DNA of 64,000 nt from Candidatus Krumholzibacteriota bacterium (lineage in GTDB: Bacteria; Krumholzibacteriota; Krumholzibacteriia; JAJRXK01), in assembly GCA_024276305.1 (NCBI GenBank), contig JAJRXK010000019.1, forward strand, positions 43,294 through 107,293, written 5' to 3'. The notes below the pieces were generated by a model. It was not told the origin of the DNA and ran no database searches. It saw only the letters and a list, made by a program, of their open reading frames with translations. Positions 7,598 to 47,273 of the stretch are shown here, piece after piece. Numbering within the stretch: position 1 is the stretch's first letter; each line of letters starts with the position of its first letter. The position numbers and the translations under genes were made by a program.

Positions 7598-7664
7598 ATT
7601 CGCCCCGCCTTGCCAGGACTGAATTCGCGGAAGCGTGAGGGGAAAGCATTCGGGTGAGGGCATC

Positions 7665-9275: not shown

Positions 9276-9418
9276 GGCGCTCTGGGCGCATCCTTTCCGA
9301 TTGCACCTCCTTCCTCTCCATCGTGTCCGATGATTCCCCCCCTTTCTGCGGGATCGGCGACCGCGGCCCCTGGCGAGCGGTGGATCTGCTAGGCTTTCGC
9401 GGTGGGGGAATAGCGAAC

Positions 9419-10498
9419 ATGATGACGATGACCAGTACTTACTCTTTTCGAAACAGTCCGCTGCGGCCTCCGGCCCCGGCTCCGGTCCTGACCTTCGTCA
9501 CCACCGGGCTGTGGGTGGTCTGCCTGCTCCTGTTCTCTTCTTCGGAGGGCCGAGCGGCGTTGCGTCCCGAAGTGATCGATGCCTCCTCCCTGACGAAGTC
9601 TGGGACGACGACCCCGGATGGACGGTGGCTGGACTTCGTCTCCCGGGACGGCTACCCCCTTCGGCTGCTCATCTCTCCCGATCCCAGTGACATTCTCAAC
9701 CCCGCGTTCGACGGACAGCTCCATCCGGTTCGGGCGGGGCAGGTGCGGGAGGCCTTGGCCGAGACCCGGGAGCTCGAGGGCGGTCCGACCGAAGTGGTGT
9801 TCTACTGCCTGCCCGGTTTGCCCGAGAAGGTGGGGCGGTCCTTCTCGGTGGGACGAGAGGTCTTTCTCAGCCCGACCTTCGGGCCGGCGGCTCTTCCCCA
9901 GATCGCGGCCACGGTGGTTCACGAGCTGGGGCATGTGGTGCAGCACGATCGCATCCCCTCCCTCGACTCGCGGGCGTGGCGGACCTATCGAGATCTGAGA
10001 GGTCTCGATCCCCAGACCTTCCGTGCGGATGCCGTCCACCGGAACCGGCCGAAGGAAATCTTCGCCGAGGATTTCCGGATGCTCTACGGCGGTGCTCTGG
10101 CCAACTACAGCGGAAGTCACGAGAATCACGACCTCGTCGATCCCGCTCGGGTGGAGGGATTGACCGAATACTTTCACGCTCTCCTCGTCGGTGGCTATTC
10201 CGAAGGACGGCCGGTGGCGGAAGTCAGCAACCATCCCAATCCCTTCAATCCCCAGACCACCATCGAGATTCGTCTGAGGCCGGAGCAAATCGCGGTCGCG
10301 CCGCGGGTGAAAGTGGACATCTACGATCTGCGCGGGCGGCGCGTGCGGAACTTCGATCCAATCCCGGCCGCTTCGGTCATCCTCTTGCCCTGGGACGGGA
10401 GTGACGATCGAGGGCAGAGTGTGGCCTCGGGTCGCTACACCTACCGTGTGCAGGTCGCCAACGAGTCGGTGTTCGGCTCCATGGTGTTGCTGCAGTGA
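9419..10498 (+). CDS. Putative zinc metalloprotease (HExxH) with N-terminal TM anchor and FlgD-Ig/T9SS-type C-terminal sorting domain.
   Basis: VVHELGHVVQHD motif. TM segment VLTFVTTGLWVVCLLLF. C-terminus NHPNPFNPQTTIEIRL...IYDLRGRRVRNF...WDGSDDRGQSVASGRYTYRVQ. ATGATG start with GGGGGAA RBS. Confidence 0.65.
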   Translation: MMTMTSTYSFRNSPLRPPAPAPVLTFVTTGLWVVCLLLFSSSEGRAALRPEVIDASSLTKSGTTTPDGRWLDFVSRDGYPLRLLISPDPSDILNPAFDGQLHPVRAGQVREALAETRELEGGPTEVVFYCLPGLPEKVGRSFSVGREVFLSPTFGPAALPQIAATVVHELGHVVQHDRIPSLDSRAWRTYRDLRGLDPQTFRADAVHRNRPKEIFAEDFRMLYGGALANYSGSHENHDLVDPARVEGLTEYFHALLVGGYSEGRPVAEVSNHPNPFNPQTTIEIRLRPEQIAVAPRVKVDIYDLRGRRVRNFDPIPAASVILLPWDGSDDRGQSVASGRYTYRVQVANESVFGSMVLLQ

Positions 10499-12142: not shown

Positions 12143-13513
12143 ATGACCGAAGCCAAGGCGCGGATCCTGATCGCGGATGACGAGGTGGCCATACGCCAGA
12201 GCCTTGGCAGCATCCTGGGTTACGAGGGTTTCGAAGTCTGCGAAGCCGAGAACGGGCCCGCGGCCCTGGCGAAATTGGCCGCAGAAAGGATCGATCTCCT
12301 CCTTCTCGATGTGAAGATGCCCCAGATGGACGGTTTCGAGGTCATCGCTCGGCTTCGCGAGGAAGGTCTGGATCTGCCAGTGGTGGTGATCAGCGGTCAC
12401 GATGCAGTCAGCAACGCGGTGGAGGCCATCAAACGGGGAGCCTACGATTTCCTGGAGAAACCCTTCAAGAAGGAGGAGCTGCTCGTTCGGGTGAACAACG
12501 CCCTCGAACACGGCCGAGTGCGCCGGGCGAATCGGGAGCTCCTCGAGAGCACGCGGTCCGGAATGCAGCTCATCGGAGACAGTCCCGCGATGCACGAGGT
12601 GAAGTCTCTCATCGAAAAGGTCGCTCCGACCCCGGCCCGCGTTCTCATCACCGGGGAGAACGGAACGGGCAAGGAGCTGGTGGCCAAGGCCATCCACGCC
12701 GCCTCGACCCGGTCCAAGGCTCCCTTCGTGGAGGTGAATTGCGCCGCATTGCCCGAGGAACTCGTCGAGAGCGAGCTCTTCGGTCACGAGAAGGGCGCCT
12801 TCACCGGGGCGCAGCGTCGTCGCGAGGGAAAGTTCGAACGGGCCCACGGCGGGACGCTCTTCCTCGACGAGATCGGGGACATGAGCCCTTCGGCCCAGGC
12901 CAAGGTGCTTCGAGCTCTCGAGGACCAACGGATCGAACGCGTGGGGGGATCGGGACCCATCGACGTGGATGTCCGAATCCTCGCGGCCACCAATCGGGAT
13001 CTCCAGGACGACGACCTCGGTTTTCGTCAGGACCTCTTCTTTCGTCTCAACGTGATCTCGATCCACCTTCCGGCCCTTCGGGAGCGGCCCGAAGACATTC
13101 CCGCCCTCTTCGACCACTTTCTGGCCCGGGCGGCGGTGGAGATGAAGCAGAAGCCCAAGCCCTTGGATCCAGAAGTAGTCAATAAGCTGATCGCATACGA
13201 CTGGCCGGGCAATGTTCGGGAATTGCGGAATCTGGCCGAGCGTCTGGCGATCGTGGCTCCCGCAGAGGGGATCCGGGTGGCAGATCTTCCCGCTTCCATG
13301 GGAGGCCGGGAAACGGTGAGGGGAGGGGCGGAGTTCCTCGATGCGCCGACCTTTCAGGACTTCAAGGCGGCGAGCGAGGCCGTTTTCCTGCAGGCCAAAC
13401 TGGCGGAGAACGACTACAACATCAGCCGCACCGCGGAGCAGCTGGAAATGCAGCGCAGCAACCTCTACAAGAAGATTCAACGCTACGACCTGCGGACATC
13501 ACAGAAGGACTGA
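12143..13513 (+). CDS. Sigma-54-dependent response regulator (NtrC family: receiver + AAA+ sigma-54 activator + Fis-type HTH).
   Basis: Receiver ILIADDEVAIRQSL...DLLLLDVKMPQMDGFEV. AAA+ domain GENGTGKELVAKAIH, GAFTGA, ESELFGHEKGAFTGA. C-terminal HTH. No histidine kinase gene nearby. Confidence 0.9.
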   Translation: MTEAKARILIADDEVAIRQSLGSILGYEGFEVCEAENGPAALAKLAAERIDLLLLDVKMPQMDGFEVIARLREEGLDLPVVVISGHDAVSNAVEAIKRGAYDFLEKPFKKEELLVRVNNALEHGRVRRANRELLESTRSGMQLIGDSPAMHEVKSLIEKVAPTPARVLITGENGTGKELVAKAIHAASTRSKAPFVEVNCAALPEELVESELFGHEKGAFTGAQRRREGKFERAHGGTLFLDEIGDMSPSAQAKVLRALEDQRIERVGGSGPIDVDVRILAATNRDLQDDDLGFRQDLFFRLNVISIHLPALRERPEDIPALFDHFLARAAVEMKQKPKPLDPEVVNKLIAYDWPGNVRELRNLAERLAIVAPAEGIRVADLPASMGGRETVRGGAEFLDAPTFQDFKAASEAVFLQAKLAENDYNISRTAEQLEMQRSNLYKKIQRYDLRTSQKD

Positions 13514-14085: not shown

Positions 14086-14204
14086 CCCGAACCGGCGCCT
14101 GAATCCGATGCACCTGGAGGGTGCAGCAGGCACCTCGAAATCTCGCGCAATGATGGAATCATCGCGAGGCACCTTTGAACCCCTTCTCGCCCAAGGGATG
14201 CCCG

Positions 14205-17200
14205 ATGCAGGACTTTCGTGACGGCCGCGAACCGAGTTCTTCGTTGCCGCACAACTTTCACTCAGGTCCCGCCCTCTCCTTCGAGCGGCTCGAGGAGGTG
14301 GGCGACCTTCACTTCCACGCGGCAGCCTACACTTCTGCCGTGGACTACTACCGTACTGCTCTCGATGCTTCACCCGCCGATGCCGATGCGCAGTCGACGC
14401 TTCTCAGGATTCGGTGCAAGCTGGCCGATTGTTTTCGGGTGCAGGGGCAGCTTCGGCGGGCCCTCGAGGAGTTCGAGACGGCGTCCACGGAGGCCGCGGG
14501 ACTGGGGACGATCGAGACCGCAGCGACCGACGTGCGAATCGCCCGGGTACTGCAGGCTCAAGGCCGCTATTCGGATGCCATCGATCTCGCGACTCGATCC
14601 TTCACCGTCCTTTCTCTGACCGACCGACACGGTGACGTTGCCATCGCGCAGATGGTTCTCGGTATTGCCCACGCTTGCCGTGGTCAGCTCGTCAAGGCGG
14701 AGGAATTCTTCCAAGACGCGCTGTCGACCTATCGCCGGATCGGGGATGAGGTCTCTCAGGCCCATGTGCTCAACAACCTCGCGCTGCTGGCCAAGAGGAA
14801 TTGCCGGTGGACGCGGGCCCTCCAGCTCTACGAGCGGGCCGAGAAGCTCTTCCACCGCCACGGCGCAAATGTCGAAATCTGTGCGCTCTATCTGAACAAA
14901 GCGGTGCTCCTGAGAAAGACCGGTCATCGAGTCGAATCGATGGCGTCGGCGCTCCAAGGCCTGCGATTGGCCCGGACCCGTGGAGACCAGGGAGGAATCC
15001 TGCGTTTCGATCTGATCCTGGGACAGCTCAAGATCGACGAATCTGCCTTTGCCGAGGCCCAGGATTACCTCCTCGAGGCCCGGGTCCTGGCGGAATCCGA
15101 GGACTCCCGTCGTGATCTCGCCTTGGCGGATGAGTTCCTCGGGGATTTGATGTTCGCCAAGGGAGAGTTGGACGACGCGATGTCCAACTACGATCGTGCG
15201 GCGGAGAGAGCGCTCGAGCTGAGTCCCACCAACGATATTCTGGCCGAAGTCTCGCGACGTCGCGCCGAACTCCACCTCCGGCGCGAAGAGCCGGAGCTCG
15301 CACTCGAGGAAGTGCACCGAGGTGTGGAGCTGGTCGACGCTTCGGGTGAGGAGTTCGAACGCGGCTTCTTGGAGCGGACGCGGGGGGGGGCCCTCACTCT
15401 CCTGGATCATGTCGAGGAGGGCTTGATCTCCTACCGCGAGAGCCTCGACACCTTCCGGCGGCTGCATCTGGATCTGGAGGTCTTCCGCACTCTGCTGTGC
15501 TTGTCCGAGGCGTTGGTTCGGCGCGGGGGAGAGAAGAACCTCGTCGTGGCCCGGGCTCGGTTGAACGAAGCCCTGGCCTTGGAGCTGCCCCCGGAGAGCG
15601 GAGTGCGTCCCGGACGGGCTCAGTTTGCATTGGCTCGCGTGGAGTTGTCCCTGGGGAACTTCGACGAGGCCTTGATCACTCTCTGCGATTTGGAACGCAG
15701 CGCTGGCGATGACGATGCACTGCACGATGCGGAGCTGTCCCTGCTCCGAGAGGAAATCGAACACGCGGTGTCGGCGGATGCCAGGGGTGGGGTGGAGTCC
15801 TTCCACTTCGTGCGTGATCTCTCGGATCGAGTGGCTCCGAACGGGCGACACGACGAGGCGACGATCTCGTCGACGCTGGTGACCGCAGCCGAGCAATTGG
15901 GGGCGCAGCGTGCGTTCGTGGCCCTTCGCGACGAGCGTGGCAGGGTACGGATTCTTGCGAACCACGAGATGGCGCTCGTGCACGCGCGCGCTCTCGCGCT
16001 GCGAGCGTGGGAGCAATTGTCGGGTCAGGAGCCGGGCCACGCTCGGGTGTGGTCGCAGGCCGCATCGGATCCGGCGTGGATCGGCGGGGTGGCCGAGAAC
16101 CGGCGTCCTCTCGATTCCGTCGTGGGGATACGACTCTTCGACGCCGCATCGGGAAGGGAAGGGCTCTTCTACTTCGATGCGGCGGTGAAGGACAGGATCC
16201 CCTTCAGTCCCGACTCCATCGCCATGGCGTCGGCTTGTGTGGCCATGTTGGGCGAAAGCATCCTTCACCGCGTCCCCTCCGACAGCCTGCTCGACGATGA
16301 AGCCAGTCCCTTCTCTCGCTTTCTCACCCAGAGTGATCGGGTTCGCGAGGTTCTGAGTCTCTGTGCGAAGGTGGCCCCGAGTCCCTACACCGTGTTGTTC
16401 ACCGGAGAGACCGGGACGGGCAAGGGCCTGTTGGCCCGGATCATCCATGATCTGAGTCCGCGCTGCGACCGCAGCTTCGTCACCGTCAATTGCGCGGCTA
16501 TTCCGGAGACTCTCCTCGAGAGCGAGCTCTTCGGACACGTTCGGGGGGCCTTTACCGGGGCCGACCGTGACAAGGATGGACTCATCGTCTCGGCGGAGGG
16601 CGGGACGCTCTTCCTGGACGAGATCGGGAAGATGCCTCTGCCCATGCAGGCGAAACTCCTACAGTTCCTCGACTCGCGCGAGGTGCGTCCGGTGGGGTCT
16701 TCGCAGATGCGATCCGTCGATGTCCGGGTCATTTGCGCCAGCAAGCGCAATCTCGAGACCATGATCACCACCGGCGAGTTCCTGGAGGACCTCTACTACC
16801 GCCTCTTGGATTTTCCGGTGTCCATTCCCCCTCTGCGCGACCGAGGAGACGACATCGTACTCCTGGCGCGGGAGTTCGTGGCGCGAAGTTGCGAGGACCT
16901 GGGGCGACCGGAGCCGGTGTTGACTCGGGGTTTCGTCTCGAGGCTGCGGGCCTACGATTGGCCGGGCAATGTGCGGCAGATGGAAAAGGTCATGCGGCGG
17001 GCGGTGGTGCTCGCTGCTTCGGAGGAGCGCCTGCGAGAGATGCATCTCCCCGCCGATCTGGGTCCGGCCGCCGTGGACGATTCCGACGGCGATCCCCCGG
17101 AGTTTCGCCCGCTCAAGGAGCAGGTCGCGGAACTCGAGCGGAGCGTGCTCCGGCGCAGTCTGGAATCGACGGGATGGAATCGTTCGGAGACCGCCCGACG

Positions 17201-17267
17201 GCTGAAGATTTCCTATCCGACCCTGCTGCAGAAGATCCGCAGTTATGGGTTGAAGGAAAACTGCTGA
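14205..17267 (+). CDS. Large TPR-repeat / GAF-like / AAA+ sigma-54-dependent transcriptional activator (bEBP without receiver domain).
   Basis: N-terminal TPR-like helical repeats (AAAYTSAVDYYRTALDASP..., LNNLALLAKRNCRWTRALQLYERAEKL...). Central GAF-like region. Sigma-54 interaction domain GETGTGKGLLARIIH...ESELFGHVRGAFTGA...GTLFLDEIG. C-terminal Fis HTH (RSETARRLKISYPTLLQKI). ATG 14205 preferred over TTG 14175. Confidence 0.8.
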   Translation: MQDFRDGREPSSSLPHNFHSGPALSFERLEEVGDLHFHAAAYTSAVDYYRTALDASPADADAQSTLLRIRCKLADCFRVQGQLRRALEEFETASTEAAGLGTIETAATDVRIARVLQAQGRYSDAIDLATRSFTVLSLTDRHGDVAIAQMVLGIAHACRGQLVKAEEFFQDALSTYRRIGDEVSQAHVLNNLALLAKRNCRWTRALQLYERAEKLFHRHGANVEICALYLNKAVLLRKTGHRVESMASALQGLRLARTRGDQGGILRFDLILGQLKIDESAFAEAQDYLLEARVLAESEDSRRDLALADEFLGDLMFAKGELDDAMSNYDRAAERALELSPTNDILAEVSRRRAELHLRREEPELALEEVHRGVELVDASGEEFERGFLERTRGGALTLLDHVEEGLISYRESLDTFRRLHLDLEVFRTLLCLSEALVRRGGEKNLVVARARLNEALALELPPESGVRPGRAQFALARVELSLGNFDEALITLCDLERSAGDDDALHDAELSLLREEIEHAVSADARGGVESFHFVRDLSDRVAPNGRHDEATISSTLVTAAEQLGAQRAFVALRDERGRVRILANHEMALVHARALALRAWEQLSGQEPGHARVWSQAASDPAWIGGVAENRRPLDSVVGIRLFDAASGREGLFYFDAAVKDRIPFSPDSIAMASACVAMLGESILHRVPSDSLLDDEASPFSRFLTQSDRVREVLSLCAKVAPSPYTVLFTGETGTGKGLLARIIHDLSPRCDRSFVTVNCAAIPETLLESELFGHVRGAFTGADRDKDGLIVSAEGGTLFLDEIGKMPLPMQAKLLQFLDSREVRPVGSSQMRSVDVRVICASKRNLETMITTGEFLEDLYYRLLDFPVSIPPLRDRGDDIVLLAREFVARSCEDLGRPEPVLTRGFVSRLRAYDWPGNVRQMEKVMRRAVVLAASEERLREMHLPADLGPAAVDDSDGDPPEFRPLKEQVAELERSVLRRSLESTGWNRSETARRLKISYPTLLQKIRSYGLKENC

Positions 17268-17829
17268 CCGGCCTTTCCTCTATCGTCTTTTTTGATAGAT
17301 GCCAAGTCATTGAAAAGCAATGACTTCAATGCAGCGTAGTCCCTCGCTCTCTAAACTTTCTTTCCAGTTGCCGGCGAGGGTTTCGGGCCATCTTCCCGCA
17401 GTGGTGTCTGGAGTCGTAAAGCGTTGTCGATCAACACATTAGCTTTTCGCAAAAGATGGCATGCCGGCATGGATGGTGCAGTGGCTCCTCTTGATCGGTC
17501 ACCAAAGCAGTCGTGTACCGGTCGTCCAGTGAGGCCTTCGGGTCCACACAGCGGGGGGTGGCGGGAGAGTTTCTCTCCGATCACCGGCCAGAATGAGGTG
17601 GAGGCCCTTCAATTCGCTCTTTCCGTTGCCGTACAGGAGGTGGGGTCCTCGTGGGGTGATGGTCAGAGGTTCGGGTCTTTGCCCTCGCTCGCACTCTCCG
17701 TGCATTTCGAAAGGATCTTGGTCCTTCAGTCGGCGAGCCGCAGAGGCATCCGCATCAGGGTTTGGCGAGATCCCTGATGCAAGCATGGAGCCCCTGGTTC
17801 GATCGAGGGACCGCGGTCTGGACGCAGGC

Positions 17830-17859
17830 GGGTCGCCCCTTCGGGGGCGGCCCGTTTTT
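17830..17859 (+). terminator. Strong intrinsic terminator (10-bp GC stem, UUCG loop, U-tract) about 560 nt downstream of the nearest + strand gene end.
   Basis: GGGTCGCCCC-TTCG-GGGGCGGCCC followed by GTTTTTGTG. Confidence 0.6.
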
Positions 17860-18110
17860 GTGAATGTGCTGGAATGACGGGGCTTTCGGGCGGCAAGAGG
17901 CCGAGTTCGCTGTCCTCGTCGGGCTACAATCTCTGTCGCCCGCCCGCTACGATCTGGCTCCGAGACGGCCCTCGTCTGCCTCCAGGCTCATTCCCACTGC
18001 GGATCCGGCCGCCGTCCGACAGGATTCAAGTCATGTAGATACAACAGCTTAGCATCTGTTACACCGAATTGGCGGGCCCGGGGACCCAGAGCAGGATTGA
18101 TTGTGGACCG

Positions 18111-18126
18111 TGGCACGAGGGGTGCG
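18111..18126 (+). promoter_or_regulatory. Candidate sigma-54 (-24/-12) promoter TGGCACgagggGTGCg.
   Basis: TGGCAC-N5-xTGC with canonical GG/GC spacing, 45 nt upstream of lipoprotein gene start 18171 and downstream of two sigma-54 activator genes. Confidence 0.5.
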
Positions 18127-18170
18127 AGAGCAGGGTTGTGCTCCCCCAGCACCCTGCGGAGGTGAATGCC

Positions 18171-19094
18171 ATGCTCTCCGATCGAAAACCTTCCTGCTCT
18201 CGCGGCGGATTCCGAAGTCTCAGGCTTTGGACTCTTTTGGGCGGCGCAGTCGCCCTCCTCTTCGCGGGATGCGGCGAAGATGTGGTGGATCGAACTCCTC
18301 CCGCGATCCCCTCGGGAGTCTACAGTATTACTGCCGACCAGCAGGTGATCCTGCGGTGGACTCCGAACCGCGAAGCCGATTTGGCCGGATATTCGGTCCT
18401 GTGGAACGACGACGGCGGAGCCGAATACTTCATCATCGCCACCTTCGACGCTCTCGACGAGAACCACTTCATGGTCGTCGATGTCCAGGATCCGTCGCTG
18501 GACTACGTGGAGTTCGCGGACCGAGGGGACGACGGAACGGGTTTGGCCAATGGTTCGGAGAATTGGTATGCGGTTCTGGCCTTCGACCACGAAGGAAACG
18601 AGTCCGACCTCAGCCTCGAGGAGATTCGGGACGTTCCCCGTCCGGAGGGCAAGGTGCAGCTGCGCGACCTGAACTTCTTGGCCGCGGAGTCGGGCTTCGA
18701 CTTCTCCGGAGAAGTGATTCGACCGGCGACCGATCCCGCCGCTGACTTCTGGTTCGAGACCGTGGGCAACGCCGGATTCCTGAACGCAAACGTCGCTCGA
18801 GTGCGGGTCCAGGACTATGGGAACGTGGGCTTCGACGTCCTGTCCGAGGCGCCGATCGGAGGTTGGTCCGTGGTCGGGCGAGTCGAGGCGATTGTCGGAC
18901 ACACTTATGCATTCGAGATCGCGGCCGGTTCCTCGGATGTACGATATGCCAAGGTGACGGTGTTCGACATGGACGTCGTCGGTCGGATCGTGGACCTGGA
19001 TTGGGCCTACCAGCCCGTGGTCAACGAATACCAGCTCAAGGGTCTCTCCACGAGGAGATCCGGCGCGGTGCGCGTTCGCAAGAGCGCGCCCTGA
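18171..19094 (+). CDS. Lipoprotein with fibronectin-III-like beta-sandwich domain, unknown function.
   Basis: Lipobox LLFAGCGED after MLSDRKPSCSRGGFRSLRLWTLLGGAVA. FN3-like block SGVYSITADQQVILRWTPNREADLAGYSVLW. GGAGGTG RBS before ATG 18171. Confidence 0.7.
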   Translation: MLSDRKPSCSRGGFRSLRLWTLLGGAVALLFAGCGEDVVDRTPPAIPSGVYSITADQQVILRWTPNREADLAGYSVLWNDDGGAEYFIIATFDALDENHFMVVDVQDPSLDYVEFADRGDDGTGLANGSENWYAVLAFDHEGNESDLSLEEIRDVPRPEGKVQLRDLNFLAAESGFDFSGEVIRPATDPAADFWFETVGNAGFLNANVARVRVQDYGNVGFDVLSEAPIGGWSVVGRVEAIVGHTYAFEIAAGSSDVRYAKVTVFDMDVVGRIVDLDWAYQPVVNEYQLKGLSTRRSGAVRVRKSAP

Positions 19095-19110
19095 TGCGAA
19101 GGAGACCACA

Positions 19111-20949
19111 ATGAAGACTTCGAGAGCCTTTGGTTGGTGGAGTTACCTGTTCATTGCCCTCTCGGTCCTGGGCGGGAGCGTGCTGTCGCTTTCATCGGCG
19201 CACGCTGCGGCTCCGACCTCACGGGCGGTCTACGCATTTCTTCAGGGGGGAGAGATCGACGCGGACTTGGTCGGAGATCCGGCCACGCCCAGCCGGGATC
19301 TGAGAGTGAATGTTTGGCACGGCCGTGAGGACAACGACACCTATCGGCGCGGCGAAGCGATGACCGTGCACTTCCGCACGAATGCAGATCTCTACGTGGT
19401 CGTCTACCGCATCGACAGCGATGGGCAGGTAGAAGTGCTGTGGCCGACCACTCGATACGATGACGGATTCGTCTACGCCGATCACACCTACACTCTTCCC
19501 CGTCCGGGTTCGCCGGTGCGGCTGCGTGCGAGTCAGTTGCGTGGTGTGGAATACATCGAGGCCATCGCCAGCGAATATCCTTTCGATCTCCGCAATCTGG
19601 CCATCGATTTTCGTTTCGATCCGGATGCGCGGACGAACTACGACTACGAGGTATCGGGCGATCCCTTCCTGGCGGTGAACGACATCAACTTCGCCATCAC
19701 TGGACTCGACGCAGATGTCGAGTACGTGGTGACCGATTGGGCTCACCTCTATGTGGAGTCCAAGGTGGAGTATGCGCGCTATACCTGCCGACAGTGCCAC
19801 GATCAGGATGACGACGAGTACCATCCCTATGTCGACAAGTGTTCGACGGTGAACATCTACAACGATTGGGGTTGGCAGACGAGTTGGTACGATCGATTCG
19901 GTTGGTATCCCCTCTACTACGAACCCCCTTACTACTATTGGGACATCTCTTTCGGACGTCCCTATTGGTATCCCTACTATCCGCTCGTCTACAGTTGGCC
20001 TGCCTACTCGGTCTACAGTCGACCTTATCCCGTCTACTGGTGGTACGACTCTCCTTACGACTATGTCGACTACCGGGTGCGCTACAAGAAGAACTGGCGC
20101 CACTACCGATCTCTCTACGATCTGGACAATCCGCGAGTCCGCAGGGCGGTGCGTGATTTCGATCAGGCGCGAGGCACGGACCGGAGCCCGGTGAGCATGC
20201 GCGATGGGCTTCGCTCTCGGTCGGCTCGGGGAAGGATCGACGAGGATCGGCTGGTTCGGAGTCGGATGCCCGCGCGCAAGCACCGTGGGGACGTGGGGCC
20301 TCTGGTCCAGAGTCGGCGGGGAGGGTCGGATTTGGGCGACCGCACGCGGAGCCGCGGGGGACGAGTCCGCACGGATCTGTCGCGGCGGTCCCAGACCCGT
20401 CGGCTCGAGAGCCTGCCTCGAGTGAGGGACGCGGATCGGAGTCGGGACCTTCGCAACCGTGGGGAACGTCGGTGGACCCGGCCGGTCATTCGCAATCGTG
20501 AGGAGCCGCACAAGGGCCGAAACCGGTCAGGATCCGCGGTCGATCGAGATCGCAGTCGCCGCCGGTCGGAGTCTGTGGTCGACCGAGATCGCAGTCGTCG
20601 CCGGTCAGGATCCGCGGTCGACAAGGATCGCCGGCGACAACGATCGCAGTCGGAGGCCCGGAAGGATCGGAGCGGGGGACGGGAACGCAGCCGTGAGGTG
20701 CGCCCGCCGAGTGGAGAACGTCGAGGGCGCAAGGGCGGTGGAGATGTGGCGCCGACTCGGAAGGAAGCTCCGCGATCCCGAGGGCAGAAGGTCGAGCCCA
20801 CGCGGCGTCAACGGGGATCCCGCGGTGGAGGCCGCGAGGTGGCTCCGTCCCGAGGAAGTCGGTCTCCCTCGAAATCTTCCGCTCCTCGGCGGTCTTCCAG
20901 GAAGAGCGGTGGTAATTCCAGACACGGATCCCGAGGCCGAAAGGGCTGA
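19111..20949 (+). CDS. Secreted DUF4384-like protein with aromatic (Y/W/P)-rich region and long Arg/Ser/Asp-rich (RS-like) tandem-repeat tail.
   Basis: Signal peptide FIALSVLGGSVLSLSSAHA. DUF4384-like core (VNVWHGREDNDTYRRGEAMTVHFRTNADLYVVVYRIDSDGQVEVLWP). YNDWGWQTSWYDRFGWYPLYYEPPYYYWD...PYPVYWWYDSPYDY region. C-terminal about 250 aa dominated by R, S, D, G (DRDRSRRRSESVVDRDRSRRRSGS...). Starts 16 nt after the lipoprotein gene, probably co-transcribed. Confidence 0.7.
   Translation: MKTSRAFGWWSYLFIALSVLGGSVLSLSSAHAAAPTSRAVYAFLQGGEIDADLVGDPATPSRDLRVNVWHGREDNDTYRRGEAMTVHFRTNADLYVVVYRIDSDGQVEVLWPTTRYDDGFVYADHTYTLPRPGSPVRLRASQLRGVEYIEAIASEYPFDLRNLAIDFRFDPDARTNYDYEVSGDPFLAVNDINFAITGLDADVEYVVTDWAHLYVESKVEYARYTCRQCHDQDDDEYHPYVDKCSTVNIYNDWGWQTSWYDRFGWYPLYYEPPYYYWDISFGRPYWYPYYPLVYSWPAYSVYSRPYPVYWWYDSPYDYVDYRVRYKKNWRHYRSLYDLDNPRVRRAVRDFDQARGTDRSPVSMRDGLRSRSARGRIDEDRLVRSRMPARKHRGDVGPLVQSRRGGSDLGDRTRSRGGRVRTDLSRRSQTRRLESLPRVRDADRSRDLRNRGERRWTRPVIRNREEPHKGRNRSGSAVDRDRSRRRSESVVDRDRSRRRSGSAVDKDRRRQRSQSEARKDRSGGRERSREVRPPSGERRGRKGGGDVAPTRKEAPRSRGQKVEPTRRQRGSRGGGREVAPSRGSRSPSKSSAPRRSSRKSGGNSRHGSRGRKG
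20523..20655 (+). repeat. 39-bp imperfect tandem repeat (about 3.4 copies) encoding 13-aa units [AV]VD[RK]DR[SR]RR[RQ]S.S.
   Basis: Units begin at 20539, 20578 and 20617 (gtcgatcgagatcgcagtcgcc... / gtcgaccgagatcgcagtcgtc... / gtcgacaaggatcgccggcgac...). Confidence 0.6.
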
Positions 20950-21168
20950 AACATGATTGGACGTGGCGTTCCTCGACAGCCGCTTTGAGTGGACGATTCG
21001 AGCGTCGGCTCTTCCCGAGATGGTTGGCAGCCGGAAGCGGGGGGAGGGCAGTGCTGGGTCGGAGGAAACGCCTGCGGGGAGAGGGAGTAGGAATTGGGTC
21101 GTCGATCAGGGGTGGCGATCTGTTCCGGACCTCCCTCTTCCCGAGTTTTTTGTCGGATGCGGCTGTCG

Positions 21169-21198
21169 TTGACCGTGGGTGGGGACGATTCCTATACT
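21169..21198 (+). promoter_or_regulatory. Sigma-70-like promoter candidate TTGACC-N18-TATACT.
   Basis: About 30 nt upstream of ATG 21227. Confidence 0.4.
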
Positions 21199-21226
21199 GC
21201 GCCGTCTTCATCCCCGTGAGGTAGCC

Positions 21227-24200
21227 ATGTCGATTCCAGCGCTGAGAGGTCCCGGGCTCGTCATCGCGATTGCAGCCCTGACTCTCGCCTCGGCCGGGGG
21301 TCGCAGCGCCGGGGCGGAACCGGTGGCCTTCCCCTCCCTCGATCGGATGAAGGAGGCGACCCGCCTCTTGGTAGAAGGAGGACCGGGATTGAGTCCGCGC
21401 AACATGAAGGACGTTCAACTCGATCGCCTTCTCCGCAAAGCGGCTCCATCCCAGCTCCGAGTATTGGTCGTCGGTTGCGATTTCAGTGACAGCTTGATGT
21501 GGGGGCGTGACCGCAGCGCCTTCGTGGGCTGGCCGGAGGGCCGGCGCATCGCGCAGCGGATTCCGGGCACCGACATTCCCATGTTCACAGCTCACGACTC
21601 CACCTACTTCGATCTGCAGATGAGTCGGGTGAACGAATACTTCCGGAGCGTGAGCTTCGACCGTTTTCGTCTGCAGTGGGATGTGTACGGGTCAATCGTC
21701 AATCTCCCGCGACCGATGGGATGGTACGGCGATCCGGACAGTAGTGATGTGCGGACCGTCGCGATGGCCCAGGAAGTCATCGATGCGGTGGATGCGGAAA
21801 TCGATTTCGGAGCTTACGACACCTTGGTGTTGATCCACGCGGGAGCAGGGAGCGAGACGGATATTCTCGGAGACAGTCCACAGCAGATCCCCAGCAACTA
21901 CCTCGATCGGCGCGACTTTTCCAGGGCATCGGAGGCGGGGCTCTTGGCTCAACCGCAGTTGCTCAGTGGCGAGGGCCCGGTCGAGCACGTCTTGATCCTA
22001 CCCGAAGCCGAAAGCCAGGATCCTTTCCCCGAGGCGGGACTGTCGGGGTTCTTCGACGTCCTGGGCGTCTATTGCTTCGAGTTCGGGCTGCGGCTCGGAA
22101 TGCTCAGTTTGACCGACTTCACCCCCGAAGGGCGTCCCGACAGTCAGGGGATCGGGAACTTCGGACTGATGGGGTTCGGACTCTTCACCGGCCTGTCGAT
22201 CGTTCCTTCCGCGCCGAGCGCGATCAATCGCTACCTCATGGGTTGGGTGGATGCGGTCGAGGTGAGAGCGGATGCCGACCTGCGTCTGAGGGCGATGGGA
22301 CCCACGGTGGCGGATGGAGATACACTTCTGATCAAAGTTCCGATCAACGATCGGGAGTACTGGCTTCTGGAGTACCGGCTCCAGGATCCCAACGGCGATC
22401 TCTTCTACACCTTCGCCGACTCCAACGGGGATCGAGTGCCGGACTATTGGGATGCCGACAGCAGCCTTGGCAACGGCCGTCCCACTTCATCCTACGATCC
22501 CGCCACCGACTGGTGGGAGAGCACGCTGAATTCGGAGTGGGACTATTTCATGAGCGAGAATCCGGCGCGCAGTGACGACCGCTGCATGCGAGCCGGTGGC
22601 AGCGGAGTCTACATTTATCACATCGACGAACGCGTCATCGAGAACTCGATTCTGTCTGGAGTGAACACCATCAACGCAGACCCGGATCACAAGGGAGTCG
22701 ATGTCGAGGAAGCCGATGGCATTCAAGACCTCGACTCGTCTCGGCCGAGCGAGTACCTCCTGGGCTGGGACGGAGATGCTTGGCGGGGCGAGGGCTCGAC
22801 CGACTTCGGACCGGACACTCTTCCCGCGACGGACACTGCTTCGGGTCTGCCCACCGGGATCCGCTTTTCTCGCTTCTCCACGGTGACGGTGGACACCCTG
22901 CCCCGAGATGATCAGGGCAATTGCACGGGATTCTCCTATCGACCGGCGATGACCTTTCGAGTCGAGTTTCTCGGGTCCAGTGGCGGGCAATCCCTGGCCC
23001 ACCGCCTCTCGTTTCGAGGAATCGCTCCGCTTTCGGCGGCACGAGTCGTGGATCTGGGATCGGGCCCTTCCGATCCCAGCCCGGATGGTCTGCTCGAGAT
23101 CGTCGCCCTGGCGGATTCGGGTCGGGTGCTGGCATTCGACCGGGCCCTGGGGGACTGGACTGACGGGGACGGAGATCCCACCACCATCGGAGTCCTGGCG
23201 GTGGTGAACGGTCCGTCCCGAGTCGCGCGTTGGATCGGTGACCCTGCGGTGGTGGACTTCGACGGCGATGGCGACCTCGAGGTGCTGGCGGCGGCAACGA
23301 CGGGAATCATCGCCCTCTCCTTCGACGGGTCGGAGTTGATCGATGGAGATCGGAATCCGGCAACCCGCGGGGTGATGTGGACCTCGGCGCAGTGGGCTCC
23401 GGTGAGCGCGCCGGCGATCCTCGACGATCCCGATCGCAGCTGCATGCAGGTGGTCAGCGATGGCAGCCGGATTGCGGCGCTACGACTGAAGTGGGTCTCG
23501 GGAGTGGTGGAGGCAACGCTCTCCTCTGCGGTGAGCGGCCGGTTGCGGGGGCAGCCCGCTCTGGTGGAGGAGCCCGAGCCCCGCATCGTGGTCCCCTGGT
23601 CGGATGAGGAAGGGCCCGGATTTCTCTTCTTTCCCACGGGGTCGACCGAGGGGATTTCGAGAATGCGGACCGATCGTGCCCCGGCGGACCTGCCGGTGGT
23701 GACCTGGAAAGAGGCGCCGGTCGGGCCGGTGGTCCTCTGGACGGATTCGTTGGGTACGAGTCATCGCACCGAGATTCCGCCGAAGAACGCCGGATCGCTC
23801 GGCTCCGTGGCAGACGTGGCCTGGGAAGACCGCCGAGGTGACGAGGTGCCCGGAGCGCCGAGCATCCTCGTGGGTGCTGCACCCCGAGCGGCAGCGACGG
23901 ATGTGGTATGGGCCCGAGCTGCGGGAGGGGAACTCCATGCCCTCGATGCATCTCTTCGACTTCGTTCGGGATTTCCCATGAGTCCCCTGAGGAGCACCCC
24001 GGTTGCGGTGACCGATTCCTTGGTGGCGCCGCCCGCCATGGTCGATCTGGACGGGGATGGTCGGATCGAATTGATCTGGCACGAGGGCGAGGGGGCCTTG
24101 CATGCGGTGGACCTCGAGGGACGGGAACTCGTGGGCTGGCCCATCGCGGGGCCCGCGGAACCCTTGGGAGGTCCGATTCTTGCCGATCTGGACGGAGATC

Positions 24201-24688
24201 TCCTTCTGGAAATGGTCCTGATGGGCCGTTTCGAGTCCCTCGAAGCGGTGGATTCGCCAGGGCGTGGTTTCGCTTCGCAGGCCCGGGGGGAAGTGAGGAT
24301 CTATGATCTAGGGACGAGGGCGGACAGCTACGCGCCCGTGCGCCTGGGCGCGGTGGGCCTTCGAAATCAGGGGATCGTCCGCGCGGGTCCCGTCCGTGCT
24401 CCGGCGGGGTCGGCAGCCTTGGACGAGGCGAGCGTGGCCTTGCAGCCCAATCCTGCCGTGGGCTCTACTCTGCGGGTACGAGTGGTCGCAGGACGATCGG
24501 GGCCGGTCCGCGCGATTCTCTACAACCTCGAGGGCCAGGAAGTGGCAGCGAGCGCGGCGGTGTTCACGGAGTCCGCGAGTGCTTTCGATGAGTCGATCGA
24601 TATTTCCGGGCTCCGCTCGGGGCTGTATGTTTGTCGAATCGTTTCGGGTTCCGAATCGATTCTCAGGTCCTTCGCGGTGGCTCGATGA
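21227..24688 (+). CDS. 1153-aa secreted protein with FG-GAP/VCBS-like Ca-binding repeats and FlgD-Ig/T9SS-type C-terminal sorting domain.
   Basis: Signal peptide MSIPALRGPGLVIAIAALTLASAGG. Repeats VDFDGDGDLEVL, VDLDGDGRIELIW, ADLDGDLLLEMVL. C-terminus ALQPNPAVGSTLRVRV...ILYNLEGQEVA...SGLYVCRIVSGSES. No HExxH seen. Confidence 0.75.
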   Translation: MSIPALRGPGLVIAIAALTLASAGGRSAGAEPVAFPSLDRMKEATRLLVEGGPGLSPRNMKDVQLDRLLRKAAPSQLRVLVVGCDFSDSLMWGRDRSAFVGWPEGRRIAQRIPGTDIPMFTAHDSTYFDLQMSRVNEYFRSVSFDRFRLQWDVYGSIVNLPRPMGWYGDPDSSDVRTVAMAQEVIDAVDAEIDFGAYDTLVLIHAGAGSETDILGDSPQQIPSNYLDRRDFSRASEAGLLAQPQLLSGEGPVEHVLILPEAESQDPFPEAGLSGFFDVLGVYCFEFGLRLGMLSLTDFTPEGRPDSQGIGNFGLMGFGLFTGLSIVPSAPSAINRYLMGWVDAVEVRADADLRLRAMGPTVADGDTLLIKVPINDREYWLLEYRLQDPNGDLFYTFADSNGDRVPDYWDADSSLGNGRPTSSYDPATDWWESTLNSEWDYFMSENPARSDDRCMRAGGSGVYIYHIDERVIENSILSGVNTINADPDHKGVDVEEADGIQDLDSSRPSEYLLGWDGDAWRGEGSTDFGPDTLPATDTASGLPTGIRFSRFSTVTVDTLPRDDQGNCTGFSYRPAMTFRVEFLGSSGGQSLAHRLSFRGIAPLSAARVVDLGSGPSDPSPDGLLEIVALADSGRVLAFDRALGDWTDGDGDPTTIGVLAVVNGPSRVARWIGDPAVVDFDGDGDLEVLAAATTGIIALSFDGSELIDGDRNPATRGVMWTSAQWAPVSAPAILDDPDRSCMQVVSDGSRIAALRLKWVSGVVEATLSSAVSGRLRGQPALVEEPEPRIVVPWSDEEGPGFLFFPTGSTEGISRMRTDRAPADLPVVTWKEAPVGPVVLWTDSLGTSHRTEIPPKNAGSLGSVADVAWEDRRGDEVPGAPSILVGAAPRAAATDVVWARAAGGELHALDASLRLRSGFPMSPLRSTPVAVTDSLVAPPAMVDLDGDGRIELIWHEGEGALHAVDLEGRELVGWPIAGPAEPLGGPILADLDGDLLLEMVLMGRFESLEAVDSPGRGFASQARGEVRIYDLGTRADSYAPVRLGAVGLRNQGIVRAGPVRAPAGSAALDEASVALQPNPAVGSTLRVRVVAGRSGPVRAILYNLEGQEVAASAAVFTESASAFDESIDISGLRSGLYVCRIVSGSESILRSFAVAR

Positions 24689-24728
24689 AACGAAGCCGCC
24701 GATGCAATGGCAATACGAGGAGAATCTC

Positions 24729-25668
24729 CATGATGCATCGCCCGCTCAATCTGGCCTTGGCAGGCCTCCTCGGCGTGGCTGTTCTCAGCTTCGCCCATCC
24801 TTCGACCGTGGACGCGGGCCAGCCTGGCGACGCGGGTCTGTTGTCGATGCGCTTGGGAATGGGGGGACGATCCGGAGGCATGGGAGAAACCGGAGTGGCG
24901 ACCACCCAGGATGCTACGGCGATGTACTGGAATCCGGCGAACATGGCCTATGCCAAGGGCACGCAGATCGCAGTGCAGCACATGGAGTACTTCGGACTCT
25001 TTCGCAAGGAAACCATGACCCTCGCTCACGAGACCGACTACGGCAGCTTCGGACTGCTCTTCAGCGGTTTCTACAGTGAGGACATCGATCGGACTGCACC
25101 GGATCCGGTGGGAGTGACCCAGGGGAGTTTTCGACCCTACGACGTGGTCGTGGGGGTCGGCTATGCGCGGGCCTTCGATCAGTTCTCTCTGGGGATCGTC
25201 ACCAAGTTCGTCTACGAGCGCATCGATGCCTATTCCGGGAGCGCGGGGGCGATCGACCTGGGAGTGACCCACCACGCGGCGATCGAAGGTCTCACCCTCG
25301 CGGCGGCAGTGCAGAACTTGGGGTCTTCGATGACTCTCAATCAGGAGAGCTTCGATCTGCCCCGCACCTTTCGCGCGGGTCTGGCCTACCGTCCCATGCC
25401 CCTCAGCTGGGCCGGTAGATTCCTGGGCACGGCCGAAATCGTCCTTCCCAATGATGGCAATAGTCGCCTCCATGCCGGGCTCGAGATCGAGCTCGATCCA
25501 TCCTTCCATCTGCGAGTGGGACACCGCTTCCAGTACGACACCTGGGGCCCGACCTTCGGAGCAGGTTTCCAGCGTGCGGGCCTACGAGTGGACTACGCCT
25601 ATATGGCCAACGACAACGATTTCGACACCACTCACCGATTCTCGCTCAGCTTGACCTCTCGCGACTAG
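24729..25668 (+). CDS. FadL/PorV-like outer-membrane beta-barrel protein.
   Basis: Signal peptide MMHRPLNLALAGLLGVAVLSFA. N-terminal GMGETGVATTQDATAMYWNPANMA motif as remembered from the FadL/PorV family. Alternating beta-strand pattern to the C-terminal RFSLSLTSRD. GAGGAG RBS. Confidence 0.55.
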
Positions 25669-46999: not shown

Positions 47000-47273
47000 G
47001 GCGACTGCGACTCATGGTAAGTAGCACATGGGATTCTGTGTTTGCGGAACACGACTTCCCTCTTTCCGGTGAATCCAAATTCTCGACGCCGAAACGATGG
47101 GCCTTGCGAGGCTCGGAGTTTCTAACCGGCCTGGGGACACGGGGTGCTTGCACTCCCGGACAACCAGGACAACCCGTGCCAACTGCCACCCCGTATGTCG
47201 ATCTCACCTTCGCCGGTGTTTCGGCATAAGTCTTTCACATCTTCGCCATCTACAAACGATGGGGGGACAAAGC

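Follow-up and report, generated by a model that had tools for sequence, protein, structure and literature searches.

Among the sigma-54 operons that depend on an enhancer and have their activator gene alongside are those of the NtrC/glnA, PspF/psp and GlrR/glmY types; in GlrR/glmY and LuxO/qrr, a small RNA gene lies beside that of the activator. DUF4384 proteins are described in the literature as uncharacterised, with the domain often fused to protease domains. In the window, i.e. the entire 64,000-nt stretch of DNA analysed, a promoter of the sigma-54 type precedes two closely spaced genes, the second of which codes for a DUF4384 protein:

18111-18125, + strand: P1, sigma-54-type promoter TGGCAC-N5-GTGC (TGGCACGAGGGGTGC), with GG at -24 and GC at -12
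18171-19094, + strand: gene A (lipoA), whose product is a lipoprotein of 307 aa (signal peptide and lipobox Cys34, FN3-like domain at the N-terminus, then another, all-beta domain)
19111-20949, + strand: gene B (dufB), coding for a 612-aa exported DUF4384 protein with a predicted signal peptide at residues 1-32 (AHA/A)

The core of this reading, namely a sigma-54-type promoter, an FN3-like lipoprotein and a secreted DUF4384 protein rich in aromatic residues and Arg/Ser, is supported by the data presented below. We assign a probability of roughly 60% to the fuller interpretation, in which lipoA-dufB is a bicistronic enhancer-dependent sigma-54 operon specifying an envelope module with a polyanion-tethering cationic tail. 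The two-gene unit is conserved in ~70-80 uncultured Krumholzibacteriota-like species, and the whole arrangement counts among the conserved core regulatory loci of these bacteria rather than being a strain-specific oddity.

P1 has the exact -24/-12 spacing and the 45-nt distance to the lipoprotein gene (motif end at 18125, ATG at 18171) given in the original prediction, and its position and strand are conserved in orthologs. If the match were fortuitous, the genes would be transcribed from a sigma-70-type promoter or via upstream read-through, and two observations lean that way: the -12 element is GTGC, not the canonical TTGC, and the only other match to TGGCAC-N5-KTGC in the 64-kb window (two in all, versus 0.15 expected), at 34672, lies within the 3′ end of an aspartyl-tRNA synthetase gene and is probably due to chance. 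However, 65 of 73 loci keep the motif TGGYAY-N5-[TGC]TGC 5′ of their lipoA ortholog (~2 expected; background 0.055 per kb per strand), indicating that the P1 match is not fortuitous. Its distance to the lipoA start codon is nearly fixed at ~60 nt (mostly 57-75 nt across orthologous loci), with 42 of the 57 motif matches 5′ of the start codon falling 46-96 nt before it, and the strand bias is extreme, the sigma-54 motif being counted over all loci 121 times on the + strand versus 5 on the - strand. Furthermore, the stretch from 17200 to 18171 yielded no sigma-70-like site, and a terminator at 17829-17862 sets the lipoA-dufB unit apart from upstream transcription. Against these data, a fortuitous P1 is extremely improbable. 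The transcript is predicted from the promoter sequence to start at ~18136-18137, ~12 nt past the -12 GC.

Sigma-54 activators had been proposed to adjoin the operon, and indeed two are encoded just upstream, their genes being syntenic in ~70 loci, each from a different species:

12143-13513, + strand: NtrC-type response-regulator sigma-54 activator, 456 aa (Pfam), GAFTGA at residue 218; second candidate regulator
14175-17267, + strand: protein with TPR, AAA+ sigma-54 activator and HTH_8 regions, 1030 aa (Pfam), GAFTGA at residue 791; candidate regulator
17909-17950, + strand: candidate upstream activator site for P1, TGTCCTCGTCGGGCTACA...TGTCGCCCGCCCGCTACG, ~160-200 nt 5′ of P1

Both activators combine Sigma54_activat and HTH_8 domains with the GAFTGA loop, and one of the two may bind the candidate site. 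The scan of proteins encoded in the window turned up no rpoN. The consensus of this site in relatives, CGTCCCC-TTTT-GGGGA..TGTCCC-N-CACA, is inverted-repeat-like, and GTCYYY-N2-6-GRRN is present 146-261 nt 5′ of P1 in 45 of 55 loci, versus 6 of 56 loci 5′ of P2 (background 0.6 per kb). The latter is a putative second sigma-54 promoter, located upstream, which apparently drives a conserved structured small RNA; the upstream motifs of P1 and P2 differ.

On the 3′ side, the unit is followed by a non-coding element and another promoter:

20960-21152, + strand: conserved non-coding 3′ element with an intrinsic terminator (hairpin 21076-21142, dG -40.5 kcal/mol; T-run 21146-21152)
21169-21198, + strand: sigma-70-type promoter TTGACC-18-TATACT, for the downstream M6-like/PorV-like gene pair

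The 3′ element (z-score -2.5), in which the blocks GGTTGGCAGCC and GTCGATCAGGGGTG are invariant and neither a conserved ORF nor an Rfam match was found, probably marks the end of the lipoA-dufB unit. TTGACN-N16-19-TAYAHT is found between dufB and the next gene, C, in 62 of 71 loci (background 0.03 per kb); the downstream pair thus has its own sigma-70-type promoter and forms a separate transcription unit. The NCBIfam models that identify this pair are 'T9SS-dependent M6-like inactivated metalloprotease' and 'PorV2'. Gene C matches the first (E 3e-58) at 197.6 bits versus an equivalog cut-off of 600, and its product carries a sorting domain for type IX secretion and lacks HExxH; the gene after C codes for a PorV/PorQ-family protein (156.8 bits versus a cut-off of 90).

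The lipoA ATG is preceded at 8 nt by GGAGGTG. The lipobox of its product (...ALLFAG-C34) contains a cysteine that is invariant in 33 aligned sequences, and 102 homologs were found. The FN3-like domain spans approximately residues 45-140, and the second all-beta domain residues 150-285. No Pfam or NCBIfam model, including Pfam fn3 (PF00041), matches the lipoA product, while PF00041 is annotated on one distant homolog (P0132). The FN3-like character assigned to this lipoprotein was borne out by its AlphaFold2 model (pLDDT 87.5, pTM 0.76), for which Foldseek returned FN3 domains, with a superposition on fibronectin EDB (5n48) at TM 0.72-0.76, rmsd 2.5-3.3 Å and probability 1.0; the modelled structure therefore supports a fibronectin type III fold for the N-terminal domain.

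The dufB gene starts 16 nt after the lipoA stop, as previously noted, behind GAAGGAGA; the gap has a median of 29 nt among 77 loci. Its product contains a single hydrophobic segment, which is N-terminal, and a domain that had been called DUF4384-like from the sequence, and which is confirmed by the Pfam HMM:

19339-19578, + strand: DUF4384 (PF14326) core, Pfam E 3.2e-17, inside a beta-sandwich head (residues ~60-220)

The match covers profile positions 1-80 of 81 at residues 77-156 and scores 62.8 bits, well above the gathering cut-off of 27, and PF14326 is also part of the precomputed annotation of all 57 DufB homologs. The head is acidic (net charge -18) and confidently modelled by AlphaFold2 (pLDDT 80-96 over residues 60-220), with generic Ig-like fold matches only; no confident structure was obtained for residues 220-330. 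The four-part architecture, consisting of the head, a Cys/His motif, an aromatic segment and a cationic tail, is kept in the 57 database homologs and in 80 species loci, where the reading frame of the tail is of the same kind, and the frame is therefore right. Neither a type IX secretion sorting domain (Por_Secre_tail) nor any other outer-membrane translocation signal was found in DufB with Pfam and NCBIfam, so that by default the protein would be periplasmic.

Behind the head is an invariant motif:

19786-19800, + strand: CxQCH motif, C226-R-Q-C229-H230, in the context R-Y-x-C-x-Q-C-H...P239-Y240...C244

All 26 aligned homologs contain CxQCH, and it occurs exactly once per protein in 80 of 80 species loci, in all of which the third Cys is invariant as well. 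A c-type cytochrome is recognised by CXXCH in an exported protein, and DufB combines CRQCH at residues 226-230 with a Sec signal peptide. It is possible, if somewhat doubtful, that DufB is a c-type haem protein in which haem is attached covalently at this motif, with maturation in the periplasm. Besides the invariance of the single motif and the signal peptide, several orthologs have three Cys in all, an odd number that would leave one Cys free, or available as a ligand, beside the two in thioether bonds, and the context R-Y-x-C-x-Q-C-H is similar to that of the second haem site in NapB, a dihaem cytochrome (RYFC[LT]QCH). The distal ligand would be provided by the third invariant Cys or by a conserved Tyr or His, such as the nearly invariant H125, with the Tyr/Trp-rich segment wrapping the haem; DufB would then act in redox or ligand sensing or in electron transfer, and not purely as a structural tether. 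The NapB site, although the best local match in a PDB profile search, is not significant (E 0.7-1.2) and extends over only ~20 residues; no cytochrome family model in Pfam or NCBIfam matches DufB; and there is no invariant Met or second His within the 212-347 module. The Pro/Tyr/Trp-rich stretch after the motif is, moreover, unlike known monohaem folds, and DufB is the only CXXCH protein encoded in the 64-kb window.

Instead of binding haem, the Cys/His motif may form a structural knuckle for zinc or another metal, or a redox-active CxxC disulfide, which would stabilise the junction between the DufB head and the aromatic segment; we regard this as a tentative option. C226, C229, H230 and C244, i.e. 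three invariant Cys and a His, could make a Cys3His site, and the H230-P239 loop is of variable length (8-25 residues), like those of metal knuckles. The match to zf-CHY (E 0.029, 15 bits) points in the same direction, but is not significant, being far under the 31-bit cut-off. Cys-rich zinc sites are, however, rare in the oxidising periplasm, neighbouring Cys and His on one metal would be sterically unusual, and the invariant Q228 with a His right after the second Cys is a classical haem signature. The haem option concerns the middle module of DufB and would be compatible with the operon model.

The aromatic segment follows immediately:

19843-20100, + strand: conserved Tyr/Trp/Pro-rich segment, residues 245-330, with 53% Y+W+P over residues 250-329

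This corresponds to the Y/W/P-rich stretch of about 80 residues in the original prediction. W255, W259, P267, Y276, D278, Y290 and Y294 are invariant in the homolog alignment, and AlphaFold2 confidence over the segment is low. The module formed by CxQCH...C, the Tyr/Trp/Pro segment and the polycationic tail was found in this DufB family only, which has 53 representatives among 1.84 billion proteins. A bolder interpretation, to which we give little credence, would make DufB a new class of exported haem/metal proteins, with a single, covalently bound c-type haem, ligated by His/Cys or His/Tyr, at the base of the Tyr/Trp-rich segment. The acidic head, aromatic block and Arg tail would then pair by cation-pi and charge interactions into a self-assembling or coacervating envelope matrix, redox-active or adhesive, which would be induced through a sigma-54 circuit with a dedicated small RNA among its components.

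The remainder of DufB is a long basic tail:

20101-20946, + strand: polycationic tail, residues 331-612, with 90 Arg+Lys versus 36 Asp+Glu, net +54, pI ~12
20467-20496, + strand: short linear motif RRWTRPVIRN, residues 453-462, within the tail
20523-20622, + strand: 39-bp tandem repeat, 2.6 copies, 84% matches (Tandem Repeats Finder), encoding SGSAVDRDRSRRR / SESVVDRDRSRRR / SGSAVDKDRRRQR

The tail was expected to be Arg/Ser/Asp-rich, and its composition is 28% Arg, 14% Ser, 11% Gly and 8% Asp, with Gly, Asp, Pro and Val interspersed; this composition is maintained in all homologs, and the tail is predicted to be disordered (pLDDT <50). Its likeness to eukaryotic SR proteins holds in composition only: RS/SR dipeptides are enriched (35 versus 22 +/- 3.8 in shuffles), but RS arrays are absent (longest alternation 4 residues), as is any RRM match, and we rejected an identity as a eukaryotic-type SR protein. 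The short motif takes the form R-[RSKN]-W-T-R-P in the 16 aligned sequences of the closer clade, and is replaced by PR.KG[ST]R[IV]W in the distant clade.

The 39-bp tandem repeats proposed for the tail were recovered, and other lineages carry different repeats at the same tail position. Between relatives at least 90% identical, the copy number differs by +/-12 aa (one unit), an in-frame polymorphism seen in relatives only. The data do not support on/off phase variation, since the repeat unit has 39 bp and is in frame and imperfect; the short near-perfect, frame- or promoter-altering repeats of a phase-variable (contingency) locus are absent (39 bp, 2.6 copies, 84%). Polyanion binding (eDNA, polyphosphate, polysaccharide) or phase-variable length change had also been suggested for the tail, which in this scenario would do its binding at the surface or outside the cell. 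The charge, pI and disorder of the tail would suit such a role, as would the gain or loss of one 12-aa unit among close relatives and the presence of lineage-specific repeats at the same position. However, an extracellular location is unsupported, because DufB has no sorting domain or outer-membrane translocation signal, and the repeat provides no on/off switch and is a poor slippage substrate; we consider this scenario unlikely.

From composition and gene neighbourhood we infer that DufB functions in the envelope, and our best guess for lipoA-dufB is an inducible envelope module with a cationic tail that would tether polyanions. In this model, one of the two neighbouring sigma-54 activators presumably acts on P1 from the site ~160-200 nt upstream, and transcription from P1 (18111-18125) would end at the strong terminator within the conserved 3′ RNA element, at ~21152. 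DufB would be exported by Sec as a chain of an acidic Ig-like head (net -18), a Cys/His knuckle, the Tyr/Trp/Pro segment and a tail of ~280 residues (net +54), in which one conserved short motif is accompanied by fast-evolving in-frame repeats. The knuckle, RYxCxQCH...PY...C, would bind a metal or covalently attached haem. The head and the aromatic part may dock onto an envelope partner, either the co-expressed LipoA or the adjacent surface module, or both, the latter presumably being an inactivated M6-like protease anchored by the PorV/PorQ-like protein. The tail would be a long tether, or a condenser, that acts electrostatically on polyanionic polymers of the envelope (for example peptidoglycan, anionic lipids or LPS, exopolysaccharide or DNA), with its reach tuned by repeat number. 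Physical association of LipoA, DufB and the M6-like and PorV-like proteins is a conjecture, because the lipoA family is also found without a DUF4384 partner, in Ignavibacteriales, and the downstream pair has its own promoter.

Comparison with described sigma-54 operons shows that the locus shares with them the GG-N10-GC promoter, an AAA+/GAFTGA activator next door and, 150-250 nt 5′ of the promoter, a conserved putative site for an activator; at P2, as in GlrR/glmY or LuxO/qrr, a small RNA gene lies beside its likely activator. It differs in having two activators and two promoters with unlike upstream motifs; in addition, one activator has a long N-terminal TPR region and no receiver domain, and the cargo consists of uncharacterised envelope proteins. 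The two downstream genes match PorV/PorQ-anchored type IX surface proteins, such as PorQ-PorZ and PorV-PorU of Porphyromonas; these neighbours, however, lie outside the sigma-54 unit, the M6-like score is far under the equivalog cut-off, and none of these models matches LipoA or DufB, both of which lack the type IX secretion sorting domain. DufB shares R-Y-x-C-x-Q-C-H within an exported protein with the second haem site of NapB, whereas it has no significant sequence or fold similarity to monohaem or dihaem c-type cytochromes beyond ~20 residues, and its motif is surrounded by Tyr/Trp/Pro-rich sequence instead of a cytochrome fold. Its tail is rich in Arg and Ser, with enriched RS/SR dipeptides, and in this resembles eukaryotic SR proteins and other Arg-rich disordered tails; from the SR proteins DufB is set apart by the lack of RS arrays and RRM and by being exported, not nuclear. 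Finally, DufB exceeds the gathering threshold of DUF4384 (62.8 versus 27 bits), its domain is modelled as a beta-sandwich, and it shares a protease link with other DUF4384 proteins, although in those described in the literature the link is a fusion to protease domains, while in dufB it is a protease-like neighbour gene. No caspase, kinase or Csx30 module is fused to the DUF4384 domain of DufB, which is followed instead by the CxQCH...C knuckle, the Tyr/Trp/Pro segment and the polycationic tail.

The gene pair lipoA and dufB is best explained, with a probability that we put at about 0.6 for anatomy and functional mechanism taken together, as a sigma-54-type transcription unit for a lipoprotein (LipoA) and an exported DUF4384 protein (DufB) with a long basic tail. 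The anatomy of the unit and of its two proteins we consider highly probable, and the functional mechanism is tentative. The features concerned are as follows.

Features of the lipoA-dufB locus (window positions)
12143-13513: NtrC-type response regulator, a sigma-54 activator
14175-17267: sigma-54 activator of the TPR + AAA+ type
17465-17479, + strand: P2, second sigma-54-type promoter, cGGCAT-GGATG-GTGC
17465-17862, + strand: candidate small RNA gene
17909-17950: window version of the palindrome upstream of P1
18111-18125, + strand: P1, sigma-54-type promoter before lipoA
18171-19094, + strand: lipoA
19111-20949, + strand: dufB
20960-21152, + strand: 3′ element of dufB
21169-21198: sigma-70-type promoter TTGACC-18-TATACT, directly after the dufB terminator
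21179/21227-24688, + strand: gene C, NCBIfam M6-like inactivated metalloprotease
21169-25668, + strand: sigma-70-type promoter with genes C and D (PorV/PorQ-like), promoter present in 62/71 loci

At 63% G+C the window abounds in long shadow ORFs, and those on the opposite strand or in alternative frames (e.g. 17988-19109 and 19219-20511, both minus) were rejected as such because homology, Pfam and synteny all back the + strand genes. A search of 5.8 billion proteins yielded 57 relatives of DufB, 413-685 aa long and down to 33% identity, all with a PF14326 annotation. Each has a signal peptide, a C-terminus that is basic and rich in Arg, Ser and Gly, and, at residues 207-263, a Y/W/P-rich window (44-56% Y+W+P). 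Codon-position base composition fails to mark the frame in the dufB tail, since CGN codons push up G+C at the first two positions. The concern that homologs might read the tail in another frame is answered by the 57 relatives and by the tail alignment, in which conserved islands exist in the annotated frame only. In a scan of one genome per species, 96 species were found to encode a DufB relative, and 80 of the loci were fetched; most are named as Krumholzibacteriota/Krumholzibacteriia, and some are labelled Gemmatimonadales, Latescibacterota or Fibrobacteraceae, the last of these labels being probably wrong.

The original prediction had placed a -24/-12 motif 45 nt ahead of a lipoprotein gene, itself followed after 16 nt by a second gene. 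Indeed, TGGCACGAGGGGTGC occupies 18111-18125 on the + strand, the ATG of lipoA (307 codons) lies at 18171 with GGAGGTG before it, and the 612-codon dufB follows behind GAAGGAGA. TGGCAC-N5-KTGC occurs only twice in the 64 kb, where shuffles would predict 0.15 occurrences; the second occurrence, TGGCACTGCACTTGC at 34672-34686 (+), falls within the 3′-terminal part of the gene for an aspartyl-tRNA synthetase (32931-34739) and probably arose by chance. Across species, 65 of 73 loci have TGGYAY-N5-[TGC]TGC in the 400 nt ahead of lipoA, and its background density of 0.055 per kb (2.3 Mb, both strands) would provide about 0.025 matches per locus. It mostly lies 57-75 nt ahead of the start codon, the window value being 60 nt, and over all loci 121 matches are on the gene strand versus 5 on the opposite strand. 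Conservation, spacing and strand bias thus uphold the sigma-54-type promoter, and by sequence comparison the motif is a phylogenetic footprint of a -24/-12 element. Each of the two upstream regulators combines a Sigma54_activat AAA+ domain and a GAFTGA loop with an HTH_8 domain. An imperfect palindrome (consensus CGTCCCC-TTTT-GGGGA, then TGTCCC..CACA) is present in 45 of 55 loci some 146-261 nt upstream of P1; judging by its placement, it is a candidate enhancer site at which an activator might bind.

To delimit the unit, we located the orthologs of six window genes in the fetched loci by tblastn. Their order is kept in essentially every locus of sufficient length: response-regulator sigma-54 activator, TPR sigma-54 activator, a gap of ~870 nt, lipoA, dufB, a large FG-GAP protein with a type IX secretion sorting domain, and a PorV-like protein. 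The median gap between lipoA and dufB is 29 nt (77 loci). The dufB stop codon is followed by ~190 nt of conserved non-coding DNA, closed by a very stable hairpin at 21076-21142 (-40.5 kcal/mol) with a T-run at 21146-21152; a similar combination follows dufB in 29 of 69 loci, generally 190-260 nt past the stop, as opposed to 9 of 67 control stretches inside a coding region. The sigma-70-type pattern TTGACN-N16-19-TAYAHT occurs between dufB and gene C in 62 of 71 loci, which account for 62 of just 74 matches in all fetched DNA. The terminator and the separate promoter therefore confine the sigma-54 unit to lipoA and dufB, as predicted for the pair, and genes C and D form a transcription unit of their own, with gene C probably starting at ATG 21227 (MSIPALRG...) and not at the called 21179. 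The ~190-nt 3′ element of dufB contains the invariant blocks GGTTGGCAGCC and GTCGATCAGGGGTG inside and before the terminator hairpin, has a z-score of -2.5 with clear covariation in the terminator stem only, and showed no Rfam match and no conserved ORF.

A second sigma-54-type motif is situated 199-320 nt past the stop codon of the TPR activator in 55 loci. In P2 and its counterparts it is followed by ~370 nt conserved at the DNA level and ending in a terminator (17829-17862 in the window), for which RNAalifold (42 sequences) predicted two hairpins whose loops, GGUGGGG and GGCGAGA, are invariant; of the 21 pairs predicted, 15 show compensatory changes, and the fold of the window copy is more stable than those of its shuffles (z-score -3.7). 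This element has no Rfam, tRNA or tmRNA match (ARAGORN found nothing in the intergenic region), and an Rfam search of 17000-21400 at E <= 1 returned one weak sbrA match, on a terminator. Small ORFs in both conserved non-coding stretches were rejected as coding, their peptides and frames not being conserved. From its conserved sequence and predicted structure, the stretch looks like a candidate gene for a sigma-54-dependent small RNA beside its activator. Upstream of P2 (17268-17464) there are AT-rich palindromes, such as AAGTCATTG-AAAAG-CAATGACTT at ~17303-17330 in the window and the TGTAAA..TTTACA and TAACTTGTTG..CAACAAGTTA types in relatives, while the palindrome of P1 is GC-rich. As the upstream motifs of P1 and P2 differ, each activator may serve one promoter.

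The N-terminus of LipoA is a signal peptide with the lipobox LLFAG-C34, and neither Pfam nor NCBIfam has a match for the protein. Its AlphaFold2 model, built from 33 sequences (pLDDT 87.5, pTM 0.76), consists of two all-beta domains, and Foldseek matches the model to fibronectin type III domains (5n48: TM 0.72-0.76, rmsd 2.5-3.3 Å, probability 1.0), so that the description of LipoA as FN3-like holds at the level of the predicted fold. Some of its 102 homologs occur in Ignavibacteriales, Bacteroidota and Zixibacteria; one Ignavibacteriales contig contains a lipoA homolog without a DUF4384 neighbour, and the pairing is therefore not universal.

The DUF4384 assignment of DufB was borne out by PF14326 at residues 77-156 (E 3.2e-17, 62.8 bits versus a cut-off of 27). 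The head (residues ~60-220) is confidently modelled as a beta-sandwich (AlphaFold2 pLDDT 80-96), for which Foldseek found only generic Ig-like or nanobody matches in the PDB (E > 0.01); PDB sequence searches with profiles of the whole family and of the module described below gave only low-complexity or non-significant matches, and no solved relative. Behind the head comes a Cys/His motif, R223-Y224-x-C226-x-Q228-C229-H230 ... P239-Y240 ... C244, invariant in 26 of 26 aligned homologs. Its core, CxQCH, appears exactly once in each of 80 species loci, and several orthologs have only three Cys in the entire protein. The predicted Y/W/P-rich stretch is also present (53% Tyr+Trp+Pro at residues 250-329); residues 245-330 have no confident AlphaFold2 fold and are conserved in sequence beyond mere composition, with W255, W259, P267, Y276, D278, Y290 and Y294 invariant. 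A profile of this module, the Cys/His motif plus aromatic segment, retrieved 53 of 1.84 billion representative proteins, and its strong matches all had the DufB architecture, so that the module is specific to the DufB family.

In exported proteins CXXCH is the signature of covalent haem attachment, and the best local PDB matches of the module profile were to NapB, a dihaem cytochrome, at its second haem site, RYFC[LT]QCH, a likeness which at E 0.7-1.2 over ~20 residues is suggestive, not significant. Cytochrome models in Pfam and NCBIfam do not match DufB, and the papers surveyed on Krumholzibacteria offer no information on the cytochromes of the group; that CxQCH is a haem site appears possible, yet doubtful. 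Similarly tentative is a zinc or disulfide knuckle, for which the zf-CHY match of the motif is equally weak (E 0.029, 15 bits versus a cut-off of 31). The motif may also be something else.

The DufB tail (residues 331-612) is rich in Arg, Ser and Asp, as originally noted (28% Arg, 14% Ser, 11% Gly, 8% Asp), and is predicted to be disordered (pLDDT < 50). Its 90 basic versus 36 acidic residues give it a net charge of +54 and a pI of about 12, compared with -18 and 4.6 for residues 35-330. The proposed likeness to eukaryotic SR proteins extends to composition, RS/SR dipeptides being enriched (35 versus 22 +/- 3.8 in shuffles), but not beyond it, the longest alternating run comprising 4 residues. 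Short motifs mark the tail in the closer clade (RRWTRPVIRN, residues 453-462) and the distant one (PR.KG[ST]R[IV]W), the C-terminus is usually GGRG or RR(R), and in between each lineage has tandem repeats of its own, 13 aa in the window and 12-15 aa elsewhere. Tandem Repeats Finder recovered the predicted 39-bp unit in 2.6 copies at 20523-20622, a short and imperfect array. In one cluster of relatives (P0007, ~48% identical to DufB; members from different samples at least 90% identical) the proteins are 578, 590 or 602 aa long, each step being exactly one 12-aa tail unit, RPERNVERNRPS; one pair is otherwise 100% identical. The family thus does vary in length through repeat number. Of the suggested phase-variable length, this variation among relatives stands; being in frame, it cannot switch the gene off.

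The signal peptide is the sole hydrophobic stretch of DufB, so the entire mature protein must reside on one side of the membrane, and a membrane-anchored form with a cytoplasmic tail is ruled out. DufB has no type IX secretion sorting domain, which makes the periplasm its default location. In the mechanism that we propose, a neighbouring sigma-54 activator would activate P1, DufB would be located in the periplasm and dock to LipoA and/or to the M6-like/PorV-like module, and its tail would tether polyanionic polymers of the envelope electrostatically. Such a scheme is speculative, and current understanding is not yet changed by the locus. If true, it would represent a ready-made, phylum-wide sigma-54 regulatory circuit in never-cultured bacteria, comprising an envelope operon, the adjoining type IX secretion surface module, a pair of enhancer-binding proteins and a structured small RNA dedicated to the circuit, and would supply the first defined context for the DUF4384 domain. 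DufB, a rare case among bacteria of an exported protein whose disordered tail is polycationic, very long and of a length that changes with repeat number, should be useful for the study of disordered regions in the cell envelope, and its invariant CxQCH offers a cheap test case for haem or metal binding.

For the product of gene C, the NCBIfam model "T9SS-dependent M6-like inactivated metalloprotease" gives E 3e-58 and 197.6 bits, far short of its equivalog cut-off of 600; an M6 domain model matches as well. The protein includes FG-GAP repeats and a sorting domain for type IX secretion. The HEFGH of active M6 enzymes is replaced by FEFGL, and no HExxH motif occurs anywhere in the sequence. Gene D, for an outer-membrane protein, matches the PorV/PorQ family above cut-off (156.8 bits versus 90) and corresponds to NCBIfam "PorV2". 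At 9323-10498 (+) and 47097-50528 (+) there are additional genes whose products have FlgD-Ig or type IX secretion sorting-type domains at the C-terminus, and many surface proteins of the source organism appear, from their sequences, to be exported by type IX secretion. Large ORFs without a Pfam match are located at 7635-9275, 50724-52961 and 52975-55404.

In the literature searched, no function is given for DUF4384, and Krumholzibacteriota are nowhere linked with type IX secretion. No earlier description appears to exist of the C-terminal module of DufB, of the circuit across the phylum or of either RNA element; the family itself is already labelled "DUF4384 domain-containing protein" in databases, and sigma-54 operons are of a known kind. 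PorV and PorQ of Porphyromonas serve as cell-surface anchors for PorU and PorZ, which have sorting domains, and by analogy the products of genes C and D may constitute a surface-anchored pair. DUF4384 also occurs on some Ser/Thr kinases, and its fusions to protease domains are loosely matched by the arrangement described here, in which a stand-alone DufB is encoded beside the dead protease of gene C.
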